Virus record (IMG/VR): IMGVR_UViG_2684623077_000006
Strand: one strand, 5' to 3'
Source of the DNA: a virus
Lineage: Duplodnaviria; Heunggongvirae; Uroviricota; Caudoviricetes
Length of the DNA stretch: 13,925 nucleotides
Of this stretch, positions 1 to 13,925 are shown piece after piece. Numbering within the stretch: the stretch's first letter is position 1; the number at the start of each line of letters is the position of its first letter. Below the pieces are notes generated by a model. It saw nothing but the letters and a program-made list of their open reading frames with translations. It made no database searches and was not told where the DNA came from. The position numbers and the translations under genes were made by a program.

Positions 1-1239
1 ATGAGCAGGGCAATTCATAGACTTAGCGACACTCTTTTACGAAAATTAAGCGGATCACCAACCACAAAAAGCACCTTTTTTAATGATGGTGGCAATCTTA
101 GCGTAAGGCATTCAATCAATGGCCTGTTAACCTGGTATTTCACTTACAGGGCCGGAACTGGTAGGCAGATATCACCGGAACGTCTGAGGCTGGGCAATTA
201 TCCCGATCTGAGCCTGAAAGCTGCCAGGGAAAAAGCGGCACAGTGTCGCGCCTGGCTGGCTGAGGGGAAAAATCCGCGCTATGAACTTAATCATGCTGTA
301 CAGGACGCGTTAGCCCCCGTGACGGTTAAGGAAGCGCTCACTTACTGGCTTGAATCGTACGCAAAGGAAAAGCGCACTGACTACGAATCACTGAAAAGCC
401 GGATCAATAAACACATAATTAGCCAGATTGGCGCTATGCCACTGGAAAAATGCGAGCTACGCCACTGGCTGGCCTGTTTTGACCAGCTTGCTAAGCGTAA
501 TCCGGTATCAGCCGGATTTTTGCTACAGGTATGCAAACAGGCGCTTAAGTACTGCCGAAAACGACGATACGCAATCAGCAACGTTCTTGATGATATGGTC
601 GTAGGTGATGTGGGGAAAAAAGCAGAAATAAGTGAGCGTGTACTGACAAACAAAGAGCTTGGAGAACTACTCCGCGCACTGGATGAAAAAATCTTCCCGC
701 CGTACTACAGCGCCCTAATTCGCCTCCTGATTGTTTTTGGATGCCGTACCACTGAGCTAAGGCGCTCTGAGGTGCAGGAGTGGGATTTTAAGGAAATGCT
801 CTGGACAGTACCGAAGGAGCACAGCAAAACGAAGGTCGCCATATTCAGACCAATACCGGAAAGCATTCTGCCGTTCGTCACGCAGCTGGTGGAGAAGAAC
901 AGGCACACGGGCTTATTGCTTGGAGAACTGAAAGGGCAATCATCCGTAGCAGAGTACGGAAGAACAGCGCACAGACGAATTAATCAAGCCCCCTGGACGT
1001 TACACGATATCCGGCACACATTTACAACCATGCTGAACGATTTAGGCGTGGATCCGCATATTGTCGAGCAGCTTACAGCCCACCAGATGCCAGGGATGCA
1101 ACGCGTCTATAACCACTCCCGTTATCTTGATGCAAAACGTGATGCTCTTAATCTATGGGTAGACCGTCTCGAGCTTCTCCAGAACAATGATGAAAAAGTC
1201 GTTGTTATGACCCCACGAATTTACACCCAAAATTCTTGA
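1..1239 (+). CDS. int: Tyrosine site-specific integrase, P4-type (412 aa)
   Basis: N-terminal arm-binding-like region (FNDGGNLSVR...LRLGNYPDLSLKAAREKAAQCRAWLAEGKNP) and C-terminal catalytic region with HDIRHTF and a conserved Tyr near the end (VYNHSRY). ATG at position 1. Confidence 0.9.
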   Translation: MSRAIHRLSDTLLRKLSGSPTTKSTFFNDGGNLSVRHSINGLLTWYFTYRAGTGRQISPERLRLGNYPDLSLKAAREKAAQCRAWLAEGKNPRYELNHAVQDALAPVTVKEALTYWLESYAKEKRTDYESLKSRINKHIISQIGAMPLEKCELRHWLACFDQLAKRNPVSAGFLLQVCKQALKYCRKRRYAISNVLDDMVVGDVGKKAEISERVLTNKELGELLRALDEKIFPPYYSALIRLLIVFGCRTTELRRSEVQEWDFKEMLWTVPKEHSKTKVAIFRPIPESILPFVTQLVEKNRHTGLLLGELKGQSSVAEYGRTAHRRINQAPWTLHDIRHTFTTMLNDLGVDPHIVEQLTAHQMPGMQRVYNHSRYLDAKRDALNLWVDRLELLQNNDEKVVVMTPRIYTQNS

Positions 1240-1243
1240 CAAA

Positions 1244-1280
1244 TTACGGCTGTTTTTTCTTTAAGAGATTACAGCCGTGA
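1244..1280. promoter_or_regulatory. Inverted repeat immediately after the int stop (arms acggctgt / acagccgt, T-rich 17-nt spacer)
   Basis: 8-bp perfect complementary arms at 1246-1253 and 1271-1278; sits at the head of the 400-nt AT-rich region upstream of alpA. Confidence 0.3.
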
Positions 1281-1648
1281 ATAAAACGCTAAATATCGGT
1301 CAAGTTCGTTAATTTTTTATTTTTCAACCATCGAAAAAATTGAAATGCACCCTACTAAACCCTTATTAGCTATTTCTTGATTGTTCCAATACCTGATGGT
1401 TTATCTGTTTGTTTTTAATGAGATAATTCAAGCGTAATGCCAAATGACGACATTTTTTGTTGCGTCGCTTAAAAACTCGTGACACGATTTTAAACACTAA
1501 CGAGCTTCTACGAACCTTAGCGAACAAAGCCTTTAGCAAGGTTGTGTTTTTAATTTAAGAGGTGAAAAAGAATCTAAGTAATATCCGATCTCATATATCT
1601 ACAGCTAAGAGAAAAGTTTATATACGTAATTTTTATGTAGGTTTTTGT

Positions 1649-11514: not shown

Positions 11515-11633
11515 GGCCGTCAGAGGGGGTGGGGGTGGTTTTCAGGACGAAACCGTCCCTGCCGGACACCGACCGCCTCCCCAAATTTTTATGCACGGGA
11601 ATTTTTTGAAAAATAATCTGACGAAAAATAAGC
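11515..11633. other. Structured G-rich intergenic region upstream of terS, candidate cos/packaging recognition region
   Basis: G-runs (agagggggtgggggtgg), hairpin ggacg-aaac-cgtcc, a C-rich partner (ccgcctcccc), then an A/T-rich tract before the terS ATG. Confidence 0.25.
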
Positions 11634-11990
11634 ATGGCAAGACCACCGAAAGCCCCCGCCTACCTGGATGATATCGCCGTGAAGCAGTGGCGGGAAAAAT
11701 CGCGGCAGCTTGCGGAACGGGGAGACCTGACCCCCGCCGACTGGAGCAATCTGGAACTGTATTGCGTCAACTACTCCATTTACCGGAAAGCCGTTGCAGA
11801 CCTTGCGGCGCGCGGGTTCAGCATTGTTAACAGTCAGGGCGGCGAGAGCAGAAACCCCGCATTAAGCGCAAAATCCGACGCTGAAAGAGTGATGATAAAA
11901 ATGGCCTCCTTGCTCGGTTTTGACCCGATAAGCCGCCGTAAAAATCCACCGGAAACAGAAGAAGAGGACGAGCTTGACCGCCTGGAATAA
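11634..11990 (+). CDS. terS: Terminase small subunit, P27 family
   Basis: 118-aa protein with the LDDIAVKQWREKSRQLAERGDLTPADWSNLELYCVNYSIYRKAV...NPALSAKSDAERVMIKMASLLGFDPISRRK pattern. Confidence 0.8.
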   Translation: MARPPKAPAYLDDIAVKQWREKSRQLAERGDLTPADWSNLELYCVNYSIYRKAVADLAARGFSIVNSQGGESRNPALSAKSDAERVMIKMASLLGFDPISRRKNPPETEEEDELDRLE

Positions 11991-13635
11991 GTACGCAGAA
12001 GACGTAAAAACGGGCAAAATTCCGGCCTGTAAACGGCTGAAACAGGCCGTTAAACGGTACTTTTCGGACCTTGAAAGCCCCCTTTACACGTTCGATCGTG
12101 AGGTTGTGGAGCGGTTTATTGCCTTTTCCAGGGTGTGCGCGCACGTAAAAGGGCCGATGCGTGGCAGACCCATTGAGCTGGAGCCGTGGCAGCAGTTCGC
12201 CTTTGCGTGCATCCTCGGCTTTAAGGTTAAGGCCACCGGACGGCGCAAATACACGAGCGCCTTTATCGAAGTGCCGCGCAAAAATGCGAAATCCACGACC
12301 GCCGCGATTCTGGCTAACTGGTTTCTGATTATGGAGAACGGTCAGCAGGATATCTACACCGCAGCGGTGAGCCGTGACCAGGCGCGGATCGTCTTTGATG
12401 ATGCGCGTCAGATGTGCCTTTTATCCCGACCGTTACGCAGGCGGGTGAATATTCAGGCGCATAAGGTGATACACCCGAAAACCAACAGCCTGTTAAAGCC
12501 ACTGGCAGCAAAAGCGGCAACCATTGAGGGGACAAACCCGAGTCTTGCCATTGTGGATGAATATCACCTGCACCCAGACAACGGGGTTTATTCCGCACTT
12601 GATATGGGGATGGGCGCACGTCCCGAAGGGCTGTTATTTGCCATTACCACATCGGGCAGTAACGTCGTTTCAGCCTGTAAGCAGCACTATGATTATTGCT
12701 GCCAGATCCTGGACGGCGAAGAGGTCAACGATTCAATTTTTGTACTGATTTACGAACTGGACGACGAAAACGAGGTTGATGATCCGGCGATGTGGATAAA
12801 GGCTAACCCTAACATCGATGTTTCCGTCGATCGTGAAAAACTGGCCTCAACCATCCAGAAAGCGCGGGGTATTCCGTCGCAATGGGTGGAAATGCTCACC
12901 AAGCGATTCAATATCTGGTGTCAGGGGGCTACGCCGTGGATGGGTAACGGTGCATGGGCGGAGTGTGCCGGAACGTTCGCGGAGGCGGATTTATACGGGC
13001 AGGAGTGCTACGCGGGGCTGGACTTATCATCAACCAGCGATATTTCCAGCGTGTGCTATGCCTTCCCGGTCGGTAAAAAGATTATGCTGGTTTCCCGTCA
13101 CTATCTGCCGGAATTTCAGCTACAGAATCCCGCCAATAAAAACCGCGCCATCTATCGCCAGTGGGTAAAGGCGGGCTGGATACGCACAACACCGGGTGAC
13201 TGCATTGATTATGACCGTATCCGTGATGACATCATGGCGGATGCAGAGAATTTCAATATCAGGCTGGTGGGCTTCGATACATGGAACGCCACGCACCTGA
13301 GGACGCAGTTACAGGGCGCAGGATTTGAGGTGGAGCCGTTCCCGCAAACCTACCTCAGATTCAGTCCGGCGGCGAAATCGTTCGAAGTTTTTGTTAACCG
13401 GAAGGTGATTGTGCATCGTGGTGATCCGGTGCTGGCCTGGTCAATGAGTAATGTTGTGATGCAGAGTGACGCGAACGCCAATATCAAGCCGAACAAGAAA
13501 AAATCATCCAACAAGATAGACCCGAGCGTTGCGGCGCTGATGGCGTTTGGCACATTCCAGGCAGAGCACGAGGACTTTGCATTCGATATGAGCGACAGCC
13601 ACAAAGAGCGGCTTGCGGCGTTTGATGGGGTATGA
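11974..13635 (+). CDS. terL: Terminase large subunit (HK97-like Terminase_1 family)
   Basis: 553-aa protein with ATPase Walker A-like FIEVPRKNAKSTTAA, Walker B-like LAIVDEYH and a C-terminal nuclease region (VGFDTWNA). Apparent TTG start at 11974 with GAAGAGGA SD, overlapping the terS 3' end; the first in-frame ATG is about 60 codons in. Confidence 0.9.
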   Translation: MTAWNKYAEDVKTGKIPACKRLKQAVKRYFSDLESPLYTFDREVVERFIAFSRVCAHVKGPMRGRPIELEPWQQFAFACILGFKVKATGRRKYTSAFIEVPRKNAKSTTAAILANWFLIMENGQQDIYTAAVSRDQARIVFDDARQMCLLSRPLRRRVNIQAHKVIHPKTNSLLKPLAAKAATIEGTNPSLAIVDEYHLHPDNGVYSALDMGMGARPEGLLFAITTSGSNVVSACKQHYDYCCQILDGEEVNDSIFVLIYELDDENEVDDPAMWIKANPNIDVSVDREKLASTIQKARGIPSQWVEMLTKRFNIWCQGATPWMGNGAWAECAGTFAEADLYGQECYAGLDLSSTSDISSVCYAFPVGKKIMLVSRHYLPEFQLQNPANKNRAIYRQWVKAGWIRTTPGDCIDYDRIRDDIMADAENFNIRLVGFDTWNATHLRTQLQGAGFEVEPFPQTYLRFSPAAKSFEVFVNRKVIVHRGDPVLAWSMSNVVMQSDANANIKPNKKKSSNKIDPSVAALMAFGTFQAEHEDFAFDMSDSHKERLAAFDGV

Positions 13636-13925
13636 CGAGAATGAGCGAAACCGAACTACTAAAAATAATCCGCCGTGTTACCGGAGCCAGCCAGACAGCA
13701 GACAAACAGGAGGCCACGCAGCCGGACAGCGTGATAGCCGAAAATTACGCGCGTGTGGTGGCTGAGGTGATGCGCCGTGACGGTATTGAGCTTAACGGCG
13801 TGGATATGCGCAACATACGAACCAGAGTCCTTGAGTTGCTGGCATACCGTCGCCGTTCTCAACAACGGAGGGAGAGCGCGAAAAATACTTATCAGTGGAA
13901 GAAGCCGGAACGGTTGCGGCGGTAA
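13632..13925 (+). CDS. Hypothetical protein (94-97 aa) downstream of terL
   Basis: ORF overlapping the terL stop (ATGA); alternative ATG at 13641; ends with TAA exactly at the window end. Confidence 0.5.
   Translation: MTRMSETELLKIIRRVTGASQTADKQEATQPDSVIAENYARVVAEVMRRDGIELNGVDMRNIRTRVLELLAYRRRSQQRRESAKNTYQWKKPERLRR

Follow-up and report, generated by a model that had tools for sequence, protein, structure and literature searches.

Sequence comparison points to the coding part of an Escherichia coli capsid-forming phage-inducible chromosomal island in a virus record

The IMG/VR virus record IMGVR_UViG_2684623077_000006, a stretch of 13,925 nt that was analyzed in full and is called the window below, is very probably the coding part of an E. 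coli capsid-forming phage-inducible chromosomal island (cf-PICI) that belongs to the EcCIEDL933 lineage. Nearly all of the window is a single rightward gene array (Table 1), and a direct gene-for-gene comparison with the prototype of the lineage, EcCIEDL933, upheld the cf-PICI identity that a first-pass annotation had proposed from the letters of the sequence. As such, the element is an ordinary member of an already described family, and the kind of element is known: cf-PICIs were published in 2022-2023 (Alqurainy et al. 2022/2023; later He et al. 2025), and the SatelliteFinder survey, in which satellite families separate cleanly, counted about 969 of them in 13% of Enterobacteriaceae genomes. 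With a prototype whose terminase, portal and protease are 95-100% identical, a solved capsid structure and about a thousand such elements catalogued, the result carries little weight as a discovery. It is instead a clean confirmation that the class can be recognised from raw sequence, to which some modest new annotations are added: a secondary integration site between bioD and uvrB, divergent adaptor and capsid alleles, a hidden C4/icd cassette and a shared 11-mer. Interest in cf-PICIs stems from their role as agents of intra- and inter-species gene transfer via "tail piracy".

Membership in the family was assessed against the published cf-PICI definition of SatelliteFinder, with Pfam and PHROGs profiles standing in for its own. 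All 11 of the 11 core components were present, and no forbidden tail or holin component was found. An integrase stands at the island end with an AlpA regulator beside it, followed by a primase with adjacent iterons, the island's own major capsid protein and prohead protease, the portal with head closure protein Hc1 and adaptor Ad1, and finally HNH, TerS and TerL. Every gene that the first-pass annotation had named (integrase, AlpA, primase, capsid, protease, portal, adaptors, HNH, TerS and TerL) gave a strong Pfam match on the plus strand and at the place claimed for it, and the Pfam and PHROGs matches of the head and terminase genes in particular were strong and do not refute the reading. True starts lie downstream of the longest possible starts for AlpA (1649), PerC (6489) and capsid (7281). 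The absence of tail, baseplate, tail-fibre and lysis genes, also claimed there, held for the open reading frames (ORFs) of the window, for which Pfam, PHROGs and NCBIfam gave no tail, holin or lysin family. No small ORF of the window contains a holin-like hydrophobic segment, no tRNA is encoded in it, and the accessory ORFs tested against PADLOC gave no defence-system match. The ORFs outside the core set match only Icd-like, YlcI/YnfO, DUF4222, single-strand DNA-binding protein (SSB) or PerC families, or PHROGs without assigned function.

EcCIEDL933 occupies positions 1680329-1694760 of the EDL933 chromosome (NZ_CP008957.1), between roxA and phoQ. Its gene order is identical to that of the window from int to the last small ORF, and protein identities range from 51 to 100% across the packaging module. 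The two elements also have in common an HK97-fold capsid, the conserved spacer between HNH and TerS, the element upstream of the capsid gene, a length of ~15 kb and the lack of tail and lysis genes. The best solved-structure match of the window capsid is PDB 9GYI (E 8e-173 over residues 1-386), which is the T=4 capsid of EcCIEDL933 (He et al. 2025). The two elements differ in attachment site (roxA-phoQ for the prototype as opposed to cspD-clpS or bioD-uvrB for the window type), in the region downstream of alpA, and in the C4 RNA/icd cassette, which EcCIEDL933 lacks. The primases are alike only over the first 161 residues; the prototype has a DUF927-type protein, whereas the C-terminal part in the window is of the D5_N/DUF5906 type. 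From the 51-100% identity of every component, helper- and AlpA-dependent induction, self-made small capsids, packaging of the island alone and transfer that needs only helper tails would be expected here as well.

Table 1 Annotated features of the window, with the profile or comparative evidence for each and protein identity to the EcCIEDL933 counterpart
Position	Strand	Feature	Evidence	Identity to EcCIEDL933
1-1239	+	Tyrosine integrase with arm-type DNA-binding N-terminal domain	Pfam Phage_integrase 1e-18, Arm-DNA-bind_3 8e-16	77%
1649-1858	+	AlpA-family regulator, 69 aa	Pfam Phage_AlpA 1.2e-15; 69-aa form called in relatives	
1870-2778	+	Variable region, ambiguous gene model	One 302-aa ORF with Icd-like C-terminus, or N-terminal remnant plus 67-aa Icd-like ORF at 2575-2778	
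2202-2381	-	YlcI/YnfO-family small gene	NCBIfam YlcI_YnfO_N 9e-18, 64 bits vs cut-off 30; annotated in relatives	
2809-2858	+	a1/b1 target sites of C4 RNA	Rfam RF03163, 46.8 bits vs gathering score 46.7	
2926-3013	+	C4/CI-type antisense immunity RNA	Rfam RF01695, full-length model, 72.3 bits vs gathering score 45, E 8e-13	
3065-3454	+	Icd-like ORF fused in frame to 75-aa ORF	NCBIfam Icd-like 4.7e-13; downstream part of mechanical 227-aa ORF 2771-3454	
3460-3759	+	DUF4222 protein, conserved, just upstream of primase	Pfam DUF4222 5e-24	93%
3756-5504	+	Primase-helicase (pri-rep)	Pfam D5_N 1e-14, DUF5906, Pox_D5; TIGR01613 P4-family primase 111 bits	
5512-5749	.	Iteron cluster	11 TCTACC/GGTAGA copies, both orientations, within 222 nt (5521-5742)	
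5793-6071	+	Conserved 92-aa protein	PHROG 1231, 3e-51	89%
6068-6478	+	SSB	Pfam SSB 4e-17	99%
6489-6746	+	PerC-family transcriptional activator	Pfam PerC 7e-36	74%
6737-6997	+	86-aa protein	PHROG 1957, 1e-24	
7034-7121	+	Conserved putative control region upstream of packaging operon	Repeats of CGTGGTTGTTC	
7281-8450	+	HK97-fold major capsid protein	Pfam Phage_capsid 2.6e-72	69%
8486-9061	+	Prohead serine protease (S78)	Pfam Peptidase_S78 1.2e-47	95%
9063-10277	+	Portal	Pfam Phage_portal 8e-92; PDB portals down to E 6e-40	96.5%
10274-10612	+	Head closure protein Hc1	Pfam Phage_HCP 1.4e-23; PHROG 25	51%
10609-10905	+	gp6-like head-tail adaptor Ad1	Pfam Phage_connect_1 1e-10; PHROG 40	74%
10905-11345	+	HNH endonuclease of packaging machine	Pfam HNH 1.9e-9	84%
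11329-11511	+	Conserved 60-aa protein between HNH and TerS	PHROG 3173, 1.8e-29	82% (EDL933_RS34035)
11512-11633	.	Predicted cos region, 122-nt non-coding G-run-rich spacer	95% conserved across four elements including EcCIEDL933	
11634-11990	+	Small terminase TerS (P27 family)	Pfam Terminase_4 1.3e-23	100%
11974-13635	+	Large terminase TerL	Pfam TerL_ATPase 7e-26, TerL_nuclease 5.5e-53	95%
13632-13925	+	Conserved 97-aa protein, last gene before right arm and attR	PHROG 1561, 2.8e-50	71%

The head and packaging genes run in the order capsid-protease-portal-Hc1-Ad1-HNH-TerS-TerL. The same families of capsid, S78 protease, portal, Hc1/Ad1, HNH, TerS and TerL are found in HK97 and HK106, but the HK97 order is TerS-TerL-portal-protease-capsid, and it cannot be reached by circular permutation because the capsid-protease-portal block is itself reversed on the same strand. 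The unusual order pointed out in the first-pass annotation is thus real. It is a family trait, common to EcCIEDL933, and was already remarked on by the cf-PICI authors, who wrote of "different genetic organisations" of PICI as opposed to phage packaging modules. Unlike HK97-like phages, the window has no tail, lysis or lambdoid regulatory genes; a complete phage of this type would carry tail and lysis genes in ~40 kb, whereas the relatives of the window end at att sites next to host genes after ~14.5 kb. At the structural level, the EcCIEDL933 capsid is T=4 without a covalent cross-link, while that of HK97 is T=7. Capsids at least 60% identical to that of the window were found in only four records of the phage collection: two of 15-16 kb, which are probably satellites deposited as phages, and two of doubtful status, an unannotated 3.8 kb fragment and a 106 kb Klebsiella record. 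In full-size phage genomes beyond those four records, capsid identity to the window was at most 38%, which agrees with published work describing the proteins of cf-PICIs as only distant relatives of phage proteins.

Head and terminase genes of HK97-type phage families, together with the ambiguous or fused reading frames at 1870-3454, could also be what is left of an HK97-like prophage that has decayed, shed its tail and lysis modules and ceased to function as a unit. We consider such a remnant very unlikely. No packaging or replication ORF is disrupted, and in its left half the window carries the int-alpA-primase module of a PICI in place of a lambdoid immunity and replication region. The capsid has no close counterpart in the full-size phage genomes just described. 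The prototype, moreover, is experimentally functional.

The boundaries of the element argue in the same direction. Since the window runs from the ATG of int to the stop codon of the last ORF, boundaries and flanks were read from relatives, in which the island extends ~175 bp to the left of the int ATG and about 0.6-0.85 kb to the right of the last stop. The earlier claim that the whole window is a satellite was correct as to the satellite, but the window falls slightly short of the full island, as the att sites and arms lie beyond its ends. Together with both arms, the window would span about 14.7-15 kb, and the related element SaT040 measures 14.5 kb between att cores, so that the size agrees with the 14-15 kb between att repeats expected of a cf-PICI. 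Exact copies of the integrase, TerL or last ORF occur in hundreds to thousands of contigs. Identical integrase copies adjoin cspD in the many contigs read, and every long contig read with an exact integrase, TerL or last ORF places the element between macB-cspD(-yljB) and clpS-clpA; tail or lysis genes are absent from both flanks. In 23 of 23 contigs read, the 97-aa last ORF is followed by a non-coding arm of 0.6-0.9 kb and then by clpS. Comparison with the empty cspD-clpS site of K-12 identified the att core as ATGATAGTTAT(Y)TATCA at the 3' end of yljB.

Other members of the family are found elsewhere in the chromosome. The right flanks of elements with an identical HNH protein lie at at least five chromosomal sites (mdtJI, thiMD, proVWX, hpt and clpS), beyond which only host genes follow, and a relative in IAI39 sits, as EcCIEDL933 does, between roxA and phoQ. 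The flanks of relatives with an identical integrase, HNH, TerL or last ORF thus hold host housekeeping genes only, and no tail, tape-measure or lysis genes of the kind that would have made the window part of an ordinary prophage. Of 5,426 complete RefSeq E. coli genomes, 1,917 have matches to parts of the element. That one compact architecture with constant boundaries recurs at many places in the chromosome, and in about one in three complete E. coli genomes, again speaks against a prophage remnant.

An exact-protein look-up of the 302-aa ORF led to a near-identical copy, contig L016 (GCA_016955135.1), which is 99.992% identical to positions 1-12777 of the window. Instead of the usual cspD-clpS site, this copy occupies the spacer that separates bioD from uvrB, upstream of the latter, where the same left arm joins the chromosome at a sequence resembling the core (L016 7900-8131 compared with K-12, L031). 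The junction in L016 reads GATGACAGTT|ATTTATCAG where K-12 reads GATGACAGTTTTATGG, and the cores compared are GATGACAGTT and GATGATAGTTAT. Judged against the empty K-12 sites, attL lies ~175 bp upstream of int both at cspD-clpS and in the bioD-uvrB spacer, which by this comparison is a secondary attB for this integrase type. The precise junction at the secondary site suggests that the integrase moved the island recently, as a discrete unit, and such mobility in a 99.99% identical copy is not what a decayed remnant would predict.

Several points weigh against the cf-PICI reading. The flanks of the window itself lie outside the given DNA, and for the 99.99% identical L016 contig only the left flank, on the uvrB side, was readable. 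The gene models at 1870-3454 are ambiguous, with an antisense ylcI gene and fused ORFs, and this accessory region may have undergone some decay. Capsid (69%) and Hc1 (51%) are well diverged from those of EcCIEDL933, the only structurally studied member, and induction, capsid size, cos ends and helper are all inferred for this copy by homology.

Other satellite classes share part of the gene content. Classical Gram-negative PICIs such as EcCICFT073 and EcCIED1a have the same module as the left half of the window (int, alpA, pri-rep and origin) and are likewise AlpA-dependent and helper-induced, but they lack capsid, portal, adaptors and TerL and redirect the helper terminase with Rpp. The window encodes portal, Hc1, Ad1 and TerL, and SatelliteFinder lists portal and adaptors among the forbidden components of a PICI. 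P4 resembles the window in its P4-family primase, its AlpA/Vis-like regulator, its integrase with arm-type sites and its CI/C4-type RNA upstream of the replication genes; in the window, the primase clears the curated cut-off of the P4-family model TIGR01613. These shared traits would fit a P4-like satellite that resizes and uses a helper capsid and carries secondarily acquired, unused head genes. P4, however, lacks head and terminase genes altogether and depends on P2 for its cos site and terminase as well as for a capsid, the size of which it alters with Sid. Searches of Pfam, PHROGs and NCBIfam gave no match to Sid, Psu, Delta or epsilon for any window ORF. Given this, the complete and conserved head and terminase operon, the requirement for each of the corresponding genes in transfer of the prototype, and the clean separation of satellite families in SatelliteFinder, a P4-like identity appears even less probable than a prophage remnant.

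Least credible is a head module domesticated by the host, similar to a gene transfer agent (GTA) or an encapsulin. RcGTA was among the next-best solved-structure matches, after 9GYI, for capsid and portal, and a small HK97-fold head without tail genes would suit such a role. GTAs, however, encode tails and are without integrase and replication genes, whereas the window has its own integrase, origin and primase, att arms in its relatives, and a sequence-specific packaging system of TerS, HNH and predicted cos. Its relatives occupy variable chromosomal sites, and not one vertically inherited locus.

The life cycle proposed for this cf-PICI follows steps that were shown for the prototype and are extended to the window by homology. 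EcCIEDL933 builds small capsids of its own, in which it packages nothing but itself, and from a helper it needs only tails; its packaging genes are each required for transfer, alpA is needed for its induction and transfer, and tail-less filled cf-PICI capsids can later dock tails from other phages. In the window, the tyrosine integrase would insert the island at an intergenic attB, usually cspD/yljB-clpS for this integrase type. A helper phage would then switch on alpA, the product of which is, by analogy with the prototype, the expected induction switch, and the island would excise and replicate from the iteron origin with its own primase-helicase and SSB. From one rightward operon, capsid, S78 protease and portal would build a small HK97-fold procapsid (T=4 and about 47 nm in the prototype). 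HNH, TerS and TerL would cut at the island's own predicted cos between HNH and TerS, one ~15 kb genome would fill the small head, and the head-closure and adaptor proteins would finish it for docking of a tail made by another phage. The present copy also carries a C4/icd cassette of the P1/P4 type upstream of the replication genes.

Two cis-acting sites of this scheme were placed from sequence features. The TCTACC motif occurs 12 times in the window as compared to 3.1 expected, a count reached in 0 of 200 shuffles, and 11 of the 12 copies lie directly after the primase gene, as the first-pass annotation had claimed for its iterons. The usual position of a PICI origin is just 3' of pri-rep, and the cluster is the putative replication origin of the island. 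A cos site is predicted in the spacer at 11512-11633 by analogy with HK97-type HNH/cos phages, and packaged cf-PICI DNA has cohesive ends.

In published cf-PICI work, swaps of adaptor and connector genes altered which phage tails the capsids could use. In the window, the low identities of Hc1 (51%) and Ad1 (74%), along with 69% for the capsid, stand beside a portal 96.5% identical to that of the prototype, and the comparison therefore predicts that this copy has a tail partner unlike that of EcCIEDL933.

The cassette upstream of the replication genes follows the region downstream of alpA (1870-2778), which the cf-PICI papers call variable and of unknown function. It was overlooked both by automated annotation and by the first-pass annotation, hidden under a probably spurious long ORF. 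The C4-type RNA is preceded by sites complementary to its loops (a1/b1, 2844-2850 and 2858-2864) and followed by a second pair, of which a2 (3015-3021) pairs with C4 positions 2984-2990 and b2 (3046-3055, CACTACAGGA) with positions 2969-2978. The b2 site spans an AGGAG Shine-Dalgarno sequence located 9 nt before the ATG (3065) of the Icd-like ORF. The arrangement a1/b1 - C4 RNA - a2/b2 - icd, in which b2 overlaps the ribosome-binding site of icd, is that of the immI (c4-icd-ant) region of P1 and P7. The window differs in having no ant antirepressor; its cassette precedes the 75-aa ORF, DUF4222 and primase genes instead, which resembles the control of the replication operon by CI in P4. The relatives L010 and IAI39 also have the cassette, whereas EcCIEDL933 and SaT040 do not, and C4/isrK matches in Gram-negative PICIs had already been noted bioinformatically.

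The reading frames around the cassette call for care. The long ORF at 2771-3454 is probably spurious over its first ~98 codons. In L016, the Icd-like 154-aa ORF and the 75-aa ORF are separate (window ~3217-3230 compared with L016 11359-11366), and the two sequences align with just one gap, of 1 nt. This gap probably accounts for the fused 227-aa frame. The identical fused protein is also present in one Sequence Read Archive assembly (L010). Further upstream, the 302-aa ORF matches NCBIfam phage_ICD_like (1.5e-18, residues 254-297) and PHROG 6196. In relatives (SaT040), PGAP splits the counterpart of 1870-2778 into a pseudo-Icd gene, ylcI and a 67-aa Icd-like gene, and the 302-aa frame may be an artefact or a fusion. 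The sole strongly hydrophobic stretch of this ORF, around residue 153, lies opposite the antisense YlcI/YnfO gene.

A second candidate control element was found upstream of the capsid gene. The 11-mer CGTGGTTGTTC is repeated in tandem in the window at 7055-7121, and in each of seven sequences compared, namely the window and six relatives (the diverged SaT040 type among them), an exact copy precedes the capsid gene. In the two relatives for which the right att arm is included, the 11-mer occurs there too, and it is also found in the int-alpA spacer of EcCIEDL933; the positions listed for relatives are 20182 in L011, 12340 in L009, and 5636 (minus strand) and 11889 in L013. Within the stretch, TTTTGTAAATTATTTGT.CGTG...GTTGTTC is invariant in four elements, while the remainder averages 75% column identity. 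The shorter 8-mer GTTGTTCG is not enriched over the window (12 found, 13.4 expected). The region at 7034-7121 presumably serves to control the packaging operon, and one of the island's DNA-binding proteins (AlpA, Int, PerC or the DUF4222 protein, for example) may use CGTGGTTGTTC as a common operator. Just upstream, the 86-aa gene is followed directly, at 7004-7031, by a hairpin that resembles a terminator (AGCCCTGGTT-T-AACCAGGGCT and then a T7 run). Scans of the window for generic promoters and terminators gave no excess over shuffled expectation, and among their hits this hairpin alone is positionally convincing.

It is conceivable, if doubtful, that the C4 switch acts in some cf-PICIs as RNA-based immunity or as a brake on replication, either independently of AlpA induction or in addition to it, and that the 11-mer is the site at which an island protein couples excision to head-gene expression. 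If true, these would be new details of cf-PICI control and not a new kind of element.

Repeats were also present in both island arms (L011 5900-5980 and 20170-20235), where three TTGTTCG copies ~10 bp apart are followed by the 26-nt repeat GGTGTAGTYAATGGTGTAGTTAATTT. GGTGTAGTYAATGGTGTAGTTAATTT forms a direct repeat of 17-26 nt, with one copy 21 bp before int and the other ~740 bp past the last ORF. It was tried as the att core and rejected, for both copies lie inside the island when compared with the empty K-12 cspD-clpS site. Flanking attP on both sides, the GGTGTAGTYAATGGTGTAGTTAATTT and TTGTTCG repeats look more like arm-type binding sites.

The window is a mosaic. Positions 1-2787 are 99.5% identical to the type represented by L002-L004, and 1529-2787 are 98.9% identical to L005-L008, while 2737-13458 are 99.6% identical to L010. 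Many mosaic relatives with 99% identity are carried by E. coli chromosomes. The exact whole mosaic is in no complete RefSeq E. coli genome (best match 92% identity over 88%), and the 130-nt junction sequence had no match in the genome or metagenome contig collections searched. Divergent blocks lie downstream of alpA, before the capsid gene, in the adaptor genes and at the tail end of the island, coinciding with the four variable regions described for cf-PICIs. In sister elements at the same attB (L002, L004-L008 and L011), a 168-aa minus-strand gene (for example L011 12372-12878) replaces PerC between the SSB region and the capsid gene. The head alleles of these sister elements have a capsid of 81% and a protease of 60% identity and a single 100-aa connector, without a Phage_HCP gene. 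The SSB-capsid interval is a hot spot for accessory cargo, and the sister elements are a variant with a minimal adaptor set.

SSB and PerC are encoded between the primase and head genes. PerC/Pch homologues control the locus of enterocyte effacement (LEE) pathogenicity island in enteropathogenic and enterohaemorrhagic E. coli, and an E. coli PICI has reportedly been found to repress LEE. Cross-talk of the island PerC with host virulence regulation is conceivable.

In one genome carrying a sister element at the cspD-clpS site (OZ039818.1; L006/L028), a second element with integrase, AlpA and DUF3987 genes, P4-like or PICI-like, lies a few kb to the right, downstream of clpA and near tRNA-Ser (serW). 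Two satellites are thus almost side by side in some genomes, and in others a Mor-family (Mu-like) block occupies that position.

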